Source: a virus
Lineage: Duplodnaviria > Heunggongvirae > Uroviricota > Caudoviricetes
DNA: 7,433 bases
Direction: 5' to 3' (one strand)
IMG/VR virus record: IMGVR_UViG_2778261064_000007
Shown here in pieces: positions 232-6,136 of this stretch (within the stretch, counting starts at the first letter, position 1; each line of letters opens with the position of its first letter). The translations under genes and the position numbers were made by a program. The notes beneath the pieces are model-generated. The model had not been told where the DNA came from and did not search any database. It saw nothing but the letters and a program-made list of their open reading frames with translations.

Positions 232-1707
232 ATGTCCGGACTACATGGTGTTGAAACCATTGAACTGACGACAGGCACGGTTGCCGTGCAGACCATCTCC
301 ACTGCAGTGATTGGCCTGGTGGGGACAGCGCCGGGCGCCTCTGGTGGCGTGTGCGCTTCCGGCACCGCCGGCTCCTGGCTGCTGGGAACGGCGCTGGATT
401 TCACGGCGAAACTGGAAGGTCGGGCCGGTAATAAGATTTCGGTGGTTGCCGTCGCTGCCACAGAACAAAACGCGCAGACAGTGGCATCGCTGGAAGGCAC
501 AACCCTGACGATAACGCTGGGGACGGACGAACACAGCCAGGTTAACGCCACGGTGGACTGTGTGACTGAAGCGGTGAATGCGCTGGGGGATTCGCCTGTG
601 ACGGCGGCTGTCAGCTCCCTGAATGCAGGAGGCGCTGAAAATAATGTGGTGTCGCCGTTCAGCCTGACGTTATCCGGCGGGGAAGATGAGGCGTTCCCGG
701 TCAATACACCGGTGGTGGTGGCAGGGGCCATTACTCAGGCAGGGAAACTGGGTACAGCCGGAACATTATACCCGGCCCTGCGAGATATTTTTGACCAGAC
801 TGGTGCGCTGGTGATTGTGGTGCGCGCAGAAAGTAAAACAAAGGCGAAAGAGGCCGAACAGCGTGCGGCGGTGATTCAGGCCATGGAGGCGCTGACAGAA
901 AGTAAGGGCGTGACAGGCTATCAACCGCGCATCCTCATTGCCACGGGGTACAGTGAGGATGATGGCGTGGCAAAGGCGCTGGAAACGTATGCCGTGAAGC
1001 TGCGGGCTGTGGCCTATATTGACTCGCCTTCAATGGCAACGCCGCAGGATGTGGTTCAGCGGCGCGCGTCATTTGGCGGGCGTGTGGAGCTGCTGCGTCC
1101 GCGCGTGTCTGTGACGGATGACAGCGGGCAGACGATATTTCGTCCATATTCGGCCCGTGCTGCCGGGCTGCGGGCCCGTATTGATTACGAAAAAGGGTGG
1201 TGGTGGTCCAAATCAAACCAGGATGTGATGAATATCACCGGTCTGGAGCAGGTGGACACATTTATTCTCGGAGAGCAGAACTGCACGGCAAACCTGCTGA
1301 ACATGGAAAATATCTCCACCATTATTCGCCATGACGGTTTTAAACACTGGGGTAACCGTCTGTGCACATCCCACAGTCAGTGGCGTTTTGAGCCGGTACG
1401 CCGCACTGCAGATGTGATTGAGGACAGCATCCAGGAGGCCATGCTGCCTTATGTCGATCGCCCGCTTGATCGGGATGTGGCAGACGACATTCTTGGCAGC
1501 ATTAATGCCTATATGCGTCAGCTTAAAAATCTGGGCGCGATCCACGGTGGCAGTGCATGGCTGAACGATGAACTGAACACTGCAGAAACCCTGGCAGCAG
1601 GGCAGTTGTATATTGATTATGACTTTGGGCCGAAGTCACCACTGGAGCGCCTGACACTGCGGGCAATGATTAACAATAAACTGGCGCTGGAGGAACTGAC
1701 AGTATGA
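232..1707 (+). CDS. FI: Contractile tail sheath protein (P2 gpFI family), 491 aa
   Basis: Complete ORF with ATG at 232 and RBS GGGAG 6 nt upstream. The N-terminus (HGVETIELTTGTVAVQTISTAVIGLVGTA) and C-terminus (RHDGFKHWGNR...ETLAAGQLYIDYDFGPKSPLERLTLRA) resemble the P2 FI sheath as I recall it (...LIRRDGFRFWGNR...[27 protein letters not shown]). Followed by a tube-sized gene as in P2. Confidence 0.92.
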   Translation: MSGLHGVETIELTTGTVAVQTISTAVIGLVGTAPGASGGVCASGTAGSWLLGTALDFTAKLEGRAGNKISVVAVAATEQNAQTVASLEGTTLTITLGTDEHSQVNATVDCVTEAVNALGDSPVTAAVSSLNAGGAENNVVSPFSLTLSGGEDEAFPVNTPVVVAGAITQAGKLGTAGTLYPALRDIFDQTGALVIVVRAESKTKAKEAEQRAAVIQAMEALTESKGVTGYQPRILIATGYSEDDGVAKALETYAVKLRAVAYIDSPSMATPQDVVQRRASFGGRVELLRPRVSVTDDSGQTIFRPYSARAAGLRARIDYEKGWWWSKSNQDVMNITGLEQVDTFILGEQNCTANLLNMENISTIIRHDGFKHWGNRLCTSHSQWRFEPVRRTADVIEDSIQEAMLPYVDRPLDRDVADDILGSINAYMRQLKNLGAIHGGSAWLNDELNTAETLAAGQLYIDYDFGPKSPLERLTLRAMINNKLALEELTV

Positions 1708-2222
1708 TGACGGGTGAAAAAAAACTGTTGCGCGCATGGGCGTTATTTCTTCCTGGCGGGATCCGCCTTCAGGGTGCGCATGAATACACGCCGCCTGCCA
1801 TTAATATCACGACAGTGGATATCAAAACCGGCGCAATGGATGCACCGGTGGCAGTGGATGACGGCATGGAAGCGCTGACCTGTTCGTTTAAGATTTATGG
1901 CTATGATGTTGCCATGCTGACGCTGCTGGGATTACAGGCCGGGCTTTATTCGCCGGAGATTGTTGTGCGCCAGGGCTATCAGGTGGGGAATGCGACCAGC
2001 GGACAGGTGGAAACCCTGCAGGGGATGATCACCAGCATCACGCCGGATGCACGTCCGGCAACATCGCAGGCAGACGCCTCGGTGACGGTGGAAATGTCGC
2101 TGAGTTATTACCGCCAGGCTGTCGACGGTGTGGAAACCATCTGCATTATTCCGGAGGAGTTTGTACGTCGTATTAATGGCGTTAATGTTCTGGCGGATCT
2201 GAAAAAAATCATCCGGGTTTAA
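1704..2222 (+). CDS. FII: Tail tube protein (P2 gpFII family), 172 aa
   Basis: ORF start ATG 1704 overlaps the sheath stop (ATGA, 1704-1707), with a second in-frame ATG at 1707. RBS GGAGGA at 1690-1695. Length 172 aa equals the size I recall for P2 FII; position directly after the sheath gene. Sequence similarity itself not verified. Confidence 0.88.
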   Translation: MMTGEKKLLRAWALFLPGGIRLQGAHEYTPPAINITTVDIKTGAMDAPVAVDDGMEALTCSFKIYGYDVAMLTLLGLQAGLYSPEIVVRQGYQVGNATSGQVETLQGMITSITPDARPATSQADASVTVEMSLSYYRQAVDGVETICIIPEEFVRRINGVNVLADLKKIIRV

Positions 2223-2240
2223 TCCGGGATCCTGTCATTC

Positions 2241-2265
2241 AGGCGGCTCAGGCCGCCTTTTTTTT
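2241..2265 (+). terminator. Intrinsic-terminator-like hairpin (AGGCGGC / GCCGCCT, loop TCAG) followed by T8 tract
   Basis: Seen directly: 2241-2247 AGGCGGC pairs with 2252-2258 GCCGCCT, T-run 2258-2265. The AGGAG RBS of gene E follows immediately (2266-2270). Confidence 0.55.
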
Positions 2266-2276
2266 AGGAGATGCTT

Positions 2277-2579
2277 ATGTCGGAAAAAAACAGTGTTCCT
2301 GCCAGCTGCGTGGAAATTGTGTTATCCGTGCCGTATGTCACCGCATCAGGACAGACGATCACGCACGTCACCATGCGTGCGCCCACCGTCCGCGATCGTC
2401 TGTTGCATCGCCGGAGTACCAAACCGGAAGCAGAGGCTGATCTGGATATGATTGCCGGTCTGTGCGGGATGGACGCGGCAGACATGATGAACATGGAAGC
2501 GTGTGATTACCTGGCCCTGGAGCGGCAGTTTAATGTTTTTTTGCTGCCGCCGGTCCGGCGGAAGAAGAAAACATCCTGA
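2277..2579 (+). CDS. E: Tail assembly chaperone (P2 gpE / lambda gpG analog), 100 aa
   Basis: Small ORF between tube and tape measure genes. I prefer ATG 2277 (AGGAG at 2266-2270, 6-nt spacer) over the ORF-track start 2271, which abuts the RBS. Contains a TTTTTTG slippery motif near its 3' end. Assignment is by position and size. Confidence 0.8.
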   Translation: MSEKNSVPASCVEIVLSVPYVTASGQTITHVTMRAPTVRDRLLHRRSTKPEAEADLDMIAGLCGMDAADMMNMEACDYLALERQFNVFLLPPVRRKKKTS

Positions 2580-2716
2580 TGGCGATACGGCGTGCCGGTG
2601 TCTGGTTCGGGTGGTCACCCGGAGATGTGATGGCACTGCCGTATGAGGATTTTGTGGCAATAATGCTGGCAGAGGCGGAAGAGAGGAAGCAGTGTTATGG
2701 CAACGGTGGGCGATAA
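2277..2716 (+). CDS. Predicted E+E' frameshift fusion (tail assembly chaperone, ~146 aa); joins zero frame 2277-2542 to -1 frame 2543-2716
   Basis: Translating the -1 frame from 2543 gives AAAGPAEEENILMAIRRAGVWFGWSPGDVMALPYEDFVAIMLAEAEERKQCYGNGGR* with stop at 2714-2716. The extension overlaps the tape measure start (2697), as E' overlaps T in P2. Predicted size is close to the ~142 aa I recall for P2 E+E'. Confidence 0.65.
2536..2543 (+). other. Predicted -1 programmed ribosomal frameshift site (slippery T-run ending in G, heptamer T_TTT_TTG)
   Basis: Seen directly: G2535 then T2536-T2542 then G2543. Zero-frame codons are GTT-TTT-TTG (V-F-L). The -1 frame is open from 2543 to the TAA at 2714-2716. 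The same heptamer at the same relative position is the reported P2 E/E' shift site (established knowledge). Confidence 0.7.
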
Positions 2717-4349
2717 CCTCAGAGCGAATATCCGGATCGGCGGCACGATAGATCCGTCGTGGAAAAATTCTGTTAATGGCCTGAAAAAGGGCCTTTCCGG
2801 AGCCACGCGTGAAGTGGCTCGTCTGACACGCCAGCAGGACGTACTGAAACGAAAAATCCAGGCTGGCGTACTGGCAGGACAGGATATTACCGATCTGCGA
2901 AAGCAGTATGAAAAGCTGGGTAAAAAAATCCATGATGCCACCGCTGAGCAGGACAGATTTAACCGTGAACTGGCGCGTGCGGAACGTCTGGCTCGCTGGA
3001 AAGGGCGTGGAATGACTGCCCTGAAAGTGGGGGGCGAGCTTTCAGTCGGGGCAGGACTGACACTGGCAGGCGCTGCAGGTGCAGCACTTAGCCGGAACAG
3101 TGAAACGGCGGAGCGGGCAGGGATCGCCCGCAGTTACGGAGTGGATTATGAAACCTATGCGGCGTGGGATTCTCTGGCCCGACTGATGGGGCTGAACGGT
3201 GAAAACATCGGTGATCTGTTTGAGGAGTACCGGAACAAGGTTTTTGACGATGGTAATGGTGCCACGGATAAAGGGGCCATTCAGGAGGTCTTTGGCAAAC
3301 TGGGACTGAAAGCCGGGGTGATGGCAGGGAAAAGTAACCAGGAGCAGGTCGAATTTTTATTTGATCGCTTACTGCAGGTAGAGAATGAACAGGTGGCAGC
3401 CGGGATGGCAGATGCGTTGTTTGGTGGTGAGGCCAATAAAATTCTGACCTGGATGCGTCTGTCAGGAAAAACTTACCGGGAGCTTATCAGTGAGCAGAAA
3501 CGCTATAACCTGGTGACAAAGGCAGGGGCAGATGGCGCAGTTCAGGGGCATATGGCGCTGTCAAATCTCAGTAATGTTCTGAGTTCGTCCATTGATGAAA
3601 TCAGCGGGCAACTGGGTAAGGAGCTGGCACCACATATTCAACAGGTGACGGATGACCTTGCGGCCTGGTTTAAGAATGGTGGACTGGAAAAAATCCGGGC
3701 ATTTATTCGTGATGATGCCCTGCCGGCGCTGATCGACTTGGCTGCCTGGATGTGGAAATTTGGAAAAGTTCTTGCCGGAATTACACAAAAAGCCATTGAG
3801 TGGGGGCTGGCGGATGATCCGCGAGAGGACCGACGGGAAGTGCTGGAGTATCTGGCAAAAATGGGGTCGCCGGAGCTGGCGAGAGTAGTGGCGCAGAAAA
3901 ACGGTCAGGGTGAATGGTTTGATGAACTGCTCAGGCAAAATCCTGACCTGACAAAACAGGTTGTACAGGCCTATAAAGACACCCGCGGTTATCTCCCCTG
4001 GAATCATGACGATAAAAAGTTTGATGCATTTCTCGACCCTTTGCTGGGACCGAAGGAAGAACCTGATTTTAAGGCGATAAAAGAGAAATCCCGCACCTAC
4101 ATTGACGGACTTCCTGCGGCTGGTCAGGGACAGGAAAATCCTGATCGCCTTTCAGCTCTCCAGTATACACCCGGCAGTATCAGCCAGGTGGAAGTAAAAC
4201 CCACGTATCAGATACGGGCGGAATTCAACATTACCCAGAAACCTGGCGAGGATGCCGGACAACTTGCAGACAGGGTGATGAAAAATCTGGGGGATATTAA
4301 TTTTGGCCAGCGTTCCCGTATGACTGATGGTTATGAATCCTGGGGGTGA
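2697..4349 (+). CDS. T: Tail tape measure protein (P2 gpT analog), 550 aa
   Basis: Complete ORF, ATG 2697 with GAGAGGAAG RBS upstream. Position is immediately after E/E'. Translation has a long predicted helical, charged N-terminal half (LKRKIQAGVLAGQDITDLRKQYEKLGKKIHDATAEQDRFNRELARAERLARW) and Gly/Ala hydrophobic segment (GGELSVGAGLTLAGAAGAAL) typical of tape measure proteins. Confidence 0.85.
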   Translation: MATVGDNLRANIRIGGTIDPSWKNSVNGLKKGLSGATREVARLTRQQDVLKRKIQAGVLAGQDITDLRKQYEKLGKKIHDATAEQDRFNRELARAERLARWKGRGMTALKVGGELSVGAGLTLAGAAGAALSRNSETAERAGIARSYGVDYETYAAWDSLARLMGLNGENIGDLFEEYRNKVFDDGNGATDKGAIQEVFGKLGLKAGVMAGKSNQEQVEFLFDRLLQVENEQVAAGMADALFGGEANKILTWMRLSGKTYRELISEQKRYNLVTKAGADGAVQGHMALSNLSNVLSSSIDEISGQLGKELAPHIQQVTDDLAAWFKNGGLEKIRAFIRDDALPALIDLAAWMWKFGKVLAGITQKAIEWGLADDPREDRREVLEYLAKMGSPELARVVAQKNGQGEWFDELLRQNPDLTKQVVQAYKDTRGYLPWNHDDKKFDAFLDPLLGPKEEPDFKAIKEKSRTYIDGLPAAGQGQENPDRLSALQYTPGSISQVEVKPTYQIRAEFNITQKPGEDAGQLADRVMKNLGDINFGQRSRMTDGYESWG

Positions 4350-4840
4350 AGATGGTGGATTTACTGGGCTGGGGCGTAAACCGGCTTGAGCGCGAAGCAT
4401 GGGACGCAGTGGGCTCATTAACGGAGGTGGCTTCCCGCGTCATGCTGTCGTTTGGTGAGTTTGAATTCAGTATCGATACGGCAGCGTATAACGCCATGAA
4501 GCGCACCATGGAATGGCGGTGGGATGAACAACAGCTTATCGGAAAAAACGACCTGCTGCAGTATACCGGTAAGGGGGCCAGAACGATAACCTTTGAAGGT
4601 ATGGTGCATGCGGGATTTCGTGACGGTGTGGGAATGGATGCCCTTGATACACTGGTTCAGATGGTGGATGACAATCCGGCCCCGCATCTTCTGGTCTCGG
4701 GCACAGGTGATGTGATGGGGTATTTCGTGGCAACAGCCTATTCAGATAACACCACCTCCTTTCTTCCCGGCGGTGCGCCAAAGAATAAAACGTTCACTCT
4801 GGAGCTGAAATACTATGGCGAAAAACTGGCGGACCACTGA
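4346..4840 (+). CDS. U: Tail protein gpU family (tail tube terminator/initiator-type protein), ~162-164 aa
   Basis: ORF-track start 4346 is a GTG that overlaps the T stop (TGA 4347-4349). An in-frame ATG at 4352 with GGGGG 5 nt upstream may be the true start. Position between tape measure and X/D as in phiCTX and R-type pyocin loci. Sequence pattern (...FEFSIDT...TFEGMV...GYFV...) is consistent with the gpU family from memory. Confidence 0.82.
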   Translation: MKMVDLLGWGVNRLEREAWDAVGSLTEVASRVMLSFGEFEFSIDTAAYNAMKRTMEWRWDEQQLIGKNDLLQYTGKGARTITFEGMVHAGFRDGVGMDALDTLVQMVDDNPAPHLLVSGTGDVMGYFVATAYSDNTTSFLPGGAPKNKTFTLELKYYGEKLADH

Positions 4841-5033
4841 CGGCGATATGCTGGATGACATCTGTCAGAGGCACTATGGCAGTGCCGGGCTTAACCAGTC
4901 ACTGGCGGCGGTACTGGAGGCTAATCCGGGGCTGGCTGACCTTGGTCCGGTCTATCCGGCGGGAGTGGAAATCGTGTTGCCGGACTGGGTATATGAACCG
5001 GAAGTGAAGGAGACGTTTCAGTTATGGGAGTGA
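4815..5033 (+). CDS. X: Tail protein X (P2 gpX family, LysM-like), 72 aa
   Basis: Translation MAKNWRTTDGDMLDDICQRHYGSAGLNQSLAAVLEANPGLADLGPVYPAGVEIVLPDWVYEPEVKETFQLWE closely matches the P2 gpX sequence as I recall it (GDTLDAICVRYYG...VLAANPGLAELG...LPD...LWE). Overlaps the U stop by 26 nt. Confidence 0.9.
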   Translation: MAKNWRTTDGDMLDDICQRHYGSAGLNQSLAAVLEANPGLADLGPVYPAGVEIVLPDWVYEPEVKETFQLWE

Positions 5034-6112
5034 ATGAGTATCAGCCGGATTTCAGTCTGACAGCGGAAGGTCAGGATATCACGAAGGAAATAAAACGAGG
5101 TCTGGCTGAGCTGCGATATACCGATAATGGTGCTGGCACAAAGCGGTCCGATGAACTGATGATAACGCTGTTCAGTGAGACGCTGGCGTTGCCCCCGAAA
5201 GGCGCGGTGCTAACGCTGGGACTGGGGTTCAACGGAAATCTGGTAAATAAAGGCAGCTTTACCGTCTGTCAGGTGGCAAGTGGTGGCCCTCCCCGCCGGA
5301 TCACTATTTATGCCACCGCAGCCCCCATGAATGCGTCAAAACATGGCGCGGACGTGACCGCACTGAAAACCCGCGCTTTCAGTGATATCTCGCTGGGAGA
5401 TCTGGTAAAAACCATCGCCACTGAAAATAATCTGGTGGCGCAGGTATCACCGGCGCTGGCTGGTATTCATATCCCGTGGGTGATGCAGTCATCAGAATCT
5501 GATGCAGCCCTCCTGTCCCGCATTGCAGGTATGTACGGTGCCACCAGTAAACCGACCAGTGGCTACTGGTTGTTTCTGGAATACGGGGCATCACGGAGTG
5601 CAGGGGGCAGAAATGCCCCTGAGATAACCATTACGCCGGGTATGGTATCAGACTGGGATTATCGTGAAGGTGAGCGACAGGGCGCTGCGGGTGGCGGGAA
5701 AGATGGGAAAGTGGGTGTCCGGTATTTTGATGCCCGTGACGGACGCACACGTGAAGTTAAAGTTGACGTGGAGTCAACAGATAAGCGGCATCCCTTTACC
5801 CAGCCTGACCAGGGCACCGCAAAACACTGTGCAGAGTCGAAGGTTAAACGTGTGCAGAAAGCCGGACGCCAGATGACGATAACGTTGCCCTGCAGACCGG
5901 AACTGCTGAAAGCGGGGGCGGAGGTGCGTTTTATCACGCAGGGATTTGGTGTGCGTGAGGACCATTACTGGCAGGCTGAATCGGTGGAGTTTTCACTGGC
6001 ACCGGGGCAGGGATTTTCGCTGAATCTGTCGCTGACCACGGATATTTCCGCGAAAGGACAGGCATCAGGGAAGAAGAACGCGGATAAAAAAGGTGTCAAT
6101 TATTACGGTTAA
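5024..6112 (+). CDS. D: Tail protein gpD family (P2 late gene D product; baseplate hub/spike-associated, distantly related to VgrG N-terminal region), 362 aa
   Basis: Complete ORF, ATG 5024 with AAGGAG at 5007-5012, overlapping the X stop by 10 nt. Size and position after U-X match phiCTX/R-pyocin order. Motif resemblance (LTLGLGF, RPELLKAGAEV, DHYWQAESVEFSL) is from memory only. Confidence 0.82.
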   Translation: MGVNEYQPDFSLTAEGQDITKEIKRGLAELRYTDNGAGTKRSDELMITLFSETLALPPKGAVLTLGLGFNGNLVNKGSFTVCQVASGGPPRRITIYATAAPMNASKHGADVTALKTRAFSDISLGDLVKTIATENNLVAQVSPALAGIHIPWVMQSSESDAALLSRIAGMYGATSKPTSGYWLFLEYGASRSAGGRNAPEITITPGMVSDWDYREGERQGAAGGGKDGKVGVRYFDARDGRTREVKVDVESTDKRHPFTQPDQGTAKHCAESKVKRVQKAGRQMTITLPCRPELLKAGAEVRFITQGFGVREDHYWQAESVEFSLAPGQGFSLNLSLTTDISAKGQASGKKNADKKGVNYYG

Positions 6113-6136
6113 TTTTTTTAAATCAGGAAATTAAAA

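Follow-up and report, generated by a model that had tools for sequence, protein, structure and literature searches.

A predicted programmed −1 frameshift joins gene E to an E′ extension in a contractile-tail module of the Caudoviricetes

By analyzing a 7,433-nucleotide (nt) stretch of tailed-virus DNA (Caudoviricetes; IMG/VR virus record IMGVR_UViG_2778261064_000007; this whole stretch is hereafter the window), we found that its tail assembly chaperone gene E very probably directs a programmed −1 ribosomal frameshift, through which an 11.1-kDa E protein and a minor 16.0-kDa fusion, E+E′, would be made. The prediction builds on a slippery heptamer lying in phase near the 3′-end of E, on the coding-type substitution pattern of the open −1 frame (E′) that follows it, on the conservation of the site and the frame among related loci, and on the same arrangement in phage P2. 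That the shift is ribosomal and infrequent, and which roles the two products play, we infer by analogy with P2 and lambda.

The predicted slip site and its −1 frame

The heptamer T_TTT_TTG belongs to a run of seven T at 2536–2542 followed by G2543, and the E frame across it reads AAT GTT TTT TTG CTG, which places the heptamer in phase (features and coordinates are collected in Table 1). A TAA directly 5′ of the run closes the −1 frame, which is then open from 2534 to 2713 (60 codons, 57 of them after the slip) until TAA 2714–2716, and overlaps the start of the open reading frame (ORF) at the tape measure position (ATG 2697) by 20 nt. With the shift site lying 12 codons 5′ of the E stop, the predicted fusion joins the first 89 codons of E to E′ and has 146 amino acids (aa), a mass of 16.0 kDa and an isoelectric point (pI) of 4.7. 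A first-pass annotation of this DNA had pointed to the T7 run and G at 2536–2543 near the 3′-end of E, to a −1 frame open for 57 codons up to TAA 2714–2716 and overlapping the tape measure start, and to an E+E′ product of ~16 kDa; its coordinates were exact, the frame was confirmed by translation, and the overlap (with ORF 2697–4349) and the mass were calculated at the values just given.

The 7 complete genes of the window, 1904 codons in all, contain only 7 in-phase heptamers of the X_XXY_YYZ type, and 57 or more open −1 codons follow only 5% of codon positions in these genes. Among the 7 heptamers, the one at 2537–2543 alone falls within the final 14 codons of its gene and opens a frame that ends at the start of the next gene. 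We also weighed A_AAA_AAC at 2284–2290 (codons 3–5 of E, with 50 open −1 codons) as another possible recoding site and discarded it, because substitutions in the E-only region follow a single frame (variable sites 13/8/56 across the three codon positions) and the run is missing from divergent relatives. An in-phase A_AAA_AAA at codons 5–7 of the tube gene (window 1717–1724), after which the −1 frame is open for 20 codons, is probably incidental. A8 runs are error-prone for polymerases.

We propose that most ribosomes would read E through to TGA 2577–2579, yielding the 100-aa E protein, and that a minority would slip one base back on T_TTT_TTG (2537–2543), where tRNA-Phe (P site, codon UUU) and tRNA-Leu (A site, codon UUG) could each pair anew with UUU after the shift to the −1 frame. 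The next codon after the slip would be GCU (2543–2545), and 57 codons of the −1 frame would lead to TAA 2714–2716. The tandem-slip product would read ...QFNVFL-AAAGPAEEENILMAIRR... (146 aa, 16.0 kDa), with QFNVFLAAAGPAEEENILMAIR as its predicted tryptic junction peptide; a junction of QFNVFFAAAG... would correspond to a slip in the P site only or to an extra U. By analogy with lambda and P2, the common E part would bind the tape measure protein (encoded at 2697–4349) and the E′ part would recruit the tube protein, upon which the tube and then the sheath would polymerise to the measured length, neither E nor E+E′ staying in the virion.

The E protein matched Pfam PF10109 (Phage_TAC_7), a family described as 'Phage tail assembly chaperone proteins, E, or 41 or 14', with an E-value of 5.6e-12 and 46 bits (gathering score 25) over 78 of 79 profile positions, and phrog_166 ('tail protein') at 7.5e-23; RefSeq names it 'phage tail assembly protein'. 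Like a P2-type gpE, it is placed between the tail tube gene and the gene at the tape measure position. The favored start is ATG 2277, 6 nt 3′ of the Shine-Dalgarno sequence AGGAG (2266–2270); ATG 2271 abuts this sequence. An NCBIfam search returned nothing for E, E′, the E+E′ fusion or the product of the tape-measure-position gene (T), and a profile search of solved structures gave no match.

Conservation and coding pattern of E′

To follow the extension through the family, 82 related loci were drawn from GTDB species genomes, IMG/VR, four GenBank phages and the genome record of Escherichia coli RM9088, and the frame of the extension was assigned by homology, as ORF length alone misleads (the +1 frame of several E. 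coli loci is open by chance). Immediately after E, 83/83 sequences, that is, the window and all 82 loci, encode an E′-like peptide in another frame. This is the −1 frame for 41 sequences, namely the window and all 40 relatives with at least 43% E identity (range 43–100%), and the +1/−2 frame for the 42 more distant sequences (Pseudomonas, PhiKM and KP12). The first-pass annotation had held that −1 stops in close relatives would speak against the frameshift; all 40 relatives proved open, with a protein-like extension.

The slippery pattern T_TTT_TTG/A is retained in 38 of these 40 relatives and T_TTT alone in the other 2. The E. coli clade (34 loci, E identity 91–100%) carries TTTTTTG at the same place, with 58 open codons from the slip; the Trabulsiella loci (L002 and L046, 56%) have AAT GCT TTT TTG and 56 codons; the Cedecea-type loci (L003, L047 and L048, 54%) have TTTTTTA and 60 codons; and Hafnia phage yong2 and Citrobacter phage Chris1 (43–44%) have GTT TTT ATG, with only T_TTT in phase and a clearly related E′ peptide. 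Across all relatives at this level of identity the Phe codon is always TTT and the codon before it always ends in T, while the run length differs (T7 in the window, T6 in L002 and P2, T5 in yong2 and Chris1). Z_ZZN tetramers are known as minimal −1 shift sites (PMC5009743). In the GenBank record of yong2 (L080, ~2750–2931) part of E′ is listed as a separate 39-aa hypothetical protein, and in that of Chris1 (L082, ~2740–2900) E′ has no annotation at all. One locus, L041, has a premature zero-frame stop (GAAGTAAAC; ~3289–3291 in locus coordinates, ~2565 in the window) that shortens E by 4 residues, and its −1 frame nevertheless remains open for 58 codons, as would be expected if constraint on the basic C-terminal tail of E were weaker than on E′.

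Further, variable sites between the window and 23 distinct sequences of close relatives were counted by codon position. The E-only region gave 13/8/56 in the E frame, and the E′-only stretch 2580–2696 gave 6/8/25 in the −1 frame (chi-square p 2e-4). In the 34-nt E/E′ overlap 5′ of ATG 2579, variation was found at only 1 of 12 E-frame third positions, compared with 56/85 elsewhere in E (p 2e-4), and at 1 of 11 E′-frame third positions, compared with 25/39 (p 0.002). Against the loci L002 and L003, the amino-acid identity of the −1 frame was 64% and 43%, respectively, with zero stops, versus 25–43% with stops present in the other two frames, and the nucleotide identity of L002 by −1-frame codon position was 0.76/0.78/0.47. 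Because variation is rich in third positions and the −1-frame identity to L002 and L003 is kept without stops, the stretch after E, judged by its substitution pattern, is protein-coding in the −1 frame. The suppression of variation in both frames 5′ of ATG 2579 indicates that −1 translation would start at the heptamer and not at this ATG. Indirectly, the purifying selection on the −1 frame also speaks for E and E+E′ both being made and both being needed for tail assembly.

Known systems and alternative explanations

The record of phage P2 (NC_001895) has entries for E, for E+E′ ('-1 frameshift; essential tail protein') and for the shift site, and the P2 frameshift is attributed to Christie et al. 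(2002, J Bacteriol 184:6522) in the summary given by PMC3931495. P2 gpE falls in the same family (PF10109, 1.4e-12) and has the same neighbors, with the tube gene 5′ and the tape measure gene 3′ in the FI-FII-E-E′-T-U-D operon, and the P2 site, GGT TTT TTG, holds the identical heptamer in the same codon phase. The dimensions differ slightly between the window and P2: 12 versus 7 codons from the shift site to the E stop, 57 versus 58 codons of −1 extension (without its own conserved start in either), 20 versus 8 nt of E′ inside T, 146 versus 142 aa for E+E′, and T7 versus T6 for the run. The tape measure protein would have 550 aa here and has ~815 aa in P2, and, unlike in P2, a gpX gene stands between U and D and the closest complete genome pairs the tail with a lambda-like head module. 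The first-pass annotation had seen the P2 E/E′ arrangement reproduced here, and this reading holds for the position of the PF10109 gene, for the heptamer and its phase, and for a −1 extension that has no conserved start and ends in T.

At the protein level, BLASTP between the window and P2 fusions was not significant (E-value 0.24, 21% identity), and the alignment was collinear, with the junctions paired and the motif VWFGWSPGDVMALPYEDF of the window placed against VIFHWPPSELYPMSLTEL of P2. P2 E′ matches PF06528 (Phage_P2_GpE) at 1.2e-21; for E′ of three relatives PF06528 was the top Pfam match but stayed below threshold (E-value 0.007–0.05, 13.5–16 bits against a cutoff of 23). A profile of five clade fusions aligned with P2 E+E′ by hhalign at an E-value of 5e-4 over 113 columns running through the junction, with a probability of only 31%. 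Scanning for relatives of P2 gpE gave only loci 99–100% identical to P2, and thus no diverse P2 E′ profile. By these profile comparisons, homology with P2 gpE is established for the E part, and homology with P2 E′ is plausible for the E′ part.

The functional model for this locus is taken from the lambda G/GT pair. The lambda tail is non-contractile, the tail here contractile. As in lambda, two overlapping ORFs linked by a conserved recoding site were found directly 5′ of the tape measure position. The lambda slippery sequence is G_GGA_AAG, unlike T_TTT_TTG here. In lambda, the part common to both products attaches to the tape measure and the extension to the tube (major tail) protein, the gpG:gpGT ratio is ~30:1, and neither product is found in the virion (PMC5009743, which in its review of the lambda work names Levin, Hendrix and Casjens 1993 and Xu, Hendrix and Duda 2004, 2013 and 2014). 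The X_XXY_YYZ class of tandem-slippage heptamer also operates in bacteria, as in E. coli dnaX (A_AAA_AAG). The dnaX gene shifts ~50% of ribosomes to a near-immediate stop; here, by comparison, the extension is long and presumably made at a low rate. An upstream Shine-Dalgarno-like element and a downstream hairpin accompany the dnaX site, whereas the GGAG and GC hairpin found here lack statistical or comparative support as stimulators.

Could E′ instead be an independent small gene? In the RefSeq (PGAP) annotation of RM9088 it appears as a free-standing 45-aa 'hypothetical protein', with the frameshift unannotated, that starts at ATG 2579, overlaps the E stop TGA 2577–2579 (TGATG) and might be translated by coupling to E with no frameshift; a few such entries exist in databases. 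We regard this as very unlikely. Of 15 distinct E′ variants among close relatives, 10 have Thr (ACG; ILT) in place of ATG 2579, which is also absent from L002 (Leu), L003 (Thr), yong2 and Chris1, and the −1 frame holds no other start codon between 2534 and 2579 that could take its place. The −1 frame appears to be read already 5′ of 2579, as synonymous variation is suppressed there in both frames, and the −1 peptide encoded in this part (AAAGPAEEE...) aligns with the peptides of relatives. When the E′ peptide was compared with 5.8 billion proteins, only six clusters were recovered (four 'hypothetical protein', two unnamed, none with a Pfam domain), as would be expected of a frame that gene callers are mostly unable to predict; judging from so few clusters, E′ probably goes uncalled in the relatives without ATG 2579.

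The same frame change would follow if RNA polymerase added one U on the homopolymeric T7 run, so that a U8 fraction of the mRNA was translated normally from E into E′. Slippage of this kind is documented in bacteria, but the reviewed cases occur on 9 A or T (PMC5009743), and the run here has 7. What the relatives keep is the in-phase slippery pattern and not the run length (T7, T6 or T5), all with E′ in the −1 frame, and the P2 site is annotated as a translational frameshift. Runs of T5–T6 are poor substrates for polymerase slippage. Transcriptional slippage is therefore a highly improbable main route, with a small contribution from T7 conceivable. It may also be asked whether the run and the open frame are a functionless coincidence or a relic, with no bearing on whether the tail module works or has decayed. 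Long open alternative frames are common in GC-rich phage DNA; in the genes of the window, at least 57 open −1 codons come after ~5% of positions, and some relatives have a +1 frame that is likewise open for 57 codons. However, the coding-type substitution pattern is specific to the −1 frame, the E′-like peptide is present in every family member and the slippery pattern is kept down to 43% identity, and the architecture is identical to that of P2 E+E′, noted in the P2 record as an essential tail protein. We consider such a coincidence extremely improbable, and, given the comparative data, a chance origin of the heptamer together with the open frame appears untenable.

Several points weigh against the programmed ribosomal frameshift that we favor. 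No convincing stimulatory element was found by folding, shuffling or comparison across relatives. In this particular sequence, ATG 2579 could additionally permit coupled initiation of the 45-aa peptide. The close relatives are phylogenetically non-independent, which makes the p-values of the variable-site counts approximate, and the local hairpin, not dual coding, could account for part of the low variation in the overlap. E′ of the window has no PF06528 match, even at E-values up to 10, and the hhalign probability against P2 E+E′, only 31%, is weak.

As a candidate stimulator, a GC-rich hairpin starts 1–4 nt after the heptamer, a spacer shorter than usual. The 32 nt after the heptamer fold to −11.4 kcal/mol, a value matched by 3% of mononucleotide shuffles, and longer folding windows were unremarkable against shuffles (z 0.41 and −1.0). 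Throughout the E. coli clade the stem does not vary, and L002 retains it with a different loop; it is absent from the Cedecea-type (L003) and yong2 loci and shows no covariation. The equivalent hairpin of P2 was no better than shuffles. With longer folds, covariation, conservation and spacer all unfavorable, the hairpin at 2547–2561 was dropped as a part of the signal. The Shine-Dalgarno-like GGAG at 2519–2522, 14 nt 5′ of the heptamer, is inseparable from the conserved Leu-Glu codons that it encodes.

The tail gene block and the wider family

The window carries a contractile-tail gene block on the + strand in the order sheath, tube, E, T, U, X, D and the start of a tail-fibre gene, with which the RefSeq annotation of RM9088 agrees; there the tube gene is named 'phage major tail tube protein'.

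Table 1. Features of the window that bear on the E/E′ frameshift, and the surrounding tail genes
Feature	Coordinates	Strand	Basis or remark
Sheath gene	232–1707	+	PF04984/PF17482
Tail tube gene (FII-like), 5′ neighbor of E	1704–2222	+	Pfam PF04985 Phage_tube, E-value 1.9e-23
Terminator-like hairpin (2241–2258) and T8 (2258–2265)	2241–2265	+	Terminator scan; in the 54-nt gap between tube stop and E start
Gene E, predicted tail assembly chaperone, 100 aa, 11.1 kDa, pI 7.7	2277–2579	+	PF10109; stop TGA 2577–2579
−1-frame TAA, upstream limit of the E′ frame	2531–2533	+	Translation of the −1 frame; directly 5′ of the run
Slippery heptamer T_TTT_TTG	2537–2543	+	Zero-frame codons TTT 2538–2540 and TTG 2541–2543
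Predicted E′ extension, −1 frame, 57 codons and TAA 2714–2716	2543–2716	+	Translation; substitution pattern
GC-rich hairpin, candidate stimulator	2544–2564	+	Core CCGCCG-GUC-CGGCGG at 2547–2561, 6 bp; starts 1–4 nt after the heptamer
−1-frame ATG overlapping the TGA of E (TGATG)	2579–2581	+	Start of the RefSeq 45-aa 'hypothetical protein'; not conserved
Tape-measure-position gene (T-like), 550 aa, same frame as E	2697–4349	+	ATG 2697; PHROG matches
gpU-like gene	4346–4840	+	PF06995
Tail protein X gene	4815–5033	+	PF05489
gpD-like gene	5024–6112	+	Weak PF05954, E-value 3.9e-4, below gathering score; RefSeq 'phage late control protein'
Second tail-fibre gene, after gpD	~6137–7433	+	Open to the end; runs off the window end

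The 550-aa ORF between E and the gpU-like gene stands in the expected place of a tape measure gene. It matched phrog_3654 ('unknown function') at 2.9e-209 and, more weakly, several PHROG tape-measure families (down to 1e-10), and profile searches gave no Pfam or NCBIfam match. The protein is short and is called 'hypothetical protein' in RefSeq and in the phages yong2 and Chris1.

In addition to the terminator-like hairpin between the tube gene and E, a second GC hairpin followed by T7 lies at 196–219, so that the two bracket the sheath and tube genes. A hairpin and T-run were also observed in the tube–E gap of five relatives, with the same stem in L043 and other stems in L003, yong2 (L080), Chris1 (L082) and L045. 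This suggests a conserved attenuator in the tube–E gap, owing to which the chaperone and tape measure genes may be expressed less than the sheath and tube genes.

Of 5426 complete E. coli genomes, 74 contain the stretch 2200–4400, at 80–98.5% identity. In the closest complete genome, RM9088, the tail block lies within a prophage beside ompW and trp, which combines a lambda-like head module (portal, S49 peptidase, decoration protein, major capsid protein and FI) with a P2-like baseplate and tail. A comparison with 50,697 phage records brought up no close DNA match for the tail block and matches only for the fibre gene, whose DNA shows 78–85% identity to lambdoid side-tail-fibre genes (Rac-SA53, Actinobacillus phage pPE4 and phiP27) in their N-terminal part; a mosaic junction lies near the T7 run at 6113–6119 before this gene. 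Downstream in RM9088 the fibre gene is split by an IS66-family element.

The first-pass annotation had also taken the frameshift site as support for an assembly-competent tail, a claim that stands in part. All seven complete tail ORFs of the window are intact and under purifying selection, and the slip site is conserved, but the slip site alone cannot exclude a recent inactivation of the prophage or a defect elsewhere, such as the split fibre gene of RM9088. An intact and selected recoding signal in a mosaic prophage is, as far as its sequence goes, consistent with a working tail module.

Beyond the relatives with a −1 frame, PF10109 includes members with other shifts. In phage Mu, whose gp41 belongs to the same family as E of the window, the tail chaperone frameshift is −2; both shift direction and site are thus not shared with Mu, because the window and all relatives with at least 43% identity use the −1 frame. 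Members with +1/−2 shifts within the conserved set of tail-chaperone recoding are credited to Xu et al. 2004 and Baranov et al. 2006 in the citations of PMC5009743. Forty distant Pseudomonas loci (L004–L013 and L049–L078; 28–36% E identity) have E′ in the +1/−2 frame, and all 40 carry an in-phase TAY_TTT_CGY in the overlap (~3225–3270 in locus coordinates); PhiKM and KP12 (Bcepmu type; L079 and L081) have an in-phase CGA_TTT_CAG and likewise E′ in the +1/−2 frame. In bacteria UUU_Ynn is prone to +1 shifts, and UCC_UUU_CGU is the +1 cassette of influenza PA-X (PMC5009743), whose UUU_CGY core recurs in the Pseudomonas TAY_TTT_CGY. We therefore tentatively suggest, with the case for it not quite matching the case against, that lineages within PF10109 may have changed the route to a homologous E′, from −1 on T_TTT_TTG/A in the enterobacterial clade of the window and on T_TTT in yong2 and Chris1 to +1 on TAY_TTT_CGY in Pseudomonas. 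If so, the window would be one end of a natural series in which the direction and strength of the shift were exchanged and the two-product output was kept.

Biologically, nothing unexpected is proposed here: the signal is an intact textbook recoding signal of a known kind that had been unannotated in this family until now. The sequences of E′, too divergent for the Pfam GpE model, could be used to widen PF06528. The practical outcome is a correction of annotation, relevant to the 74 of 5426 complete E. coli genomes that carry the stretch, in which the real product of this frame is most likely the 146-aa E+E′ fusion and not a 45-aa protein.

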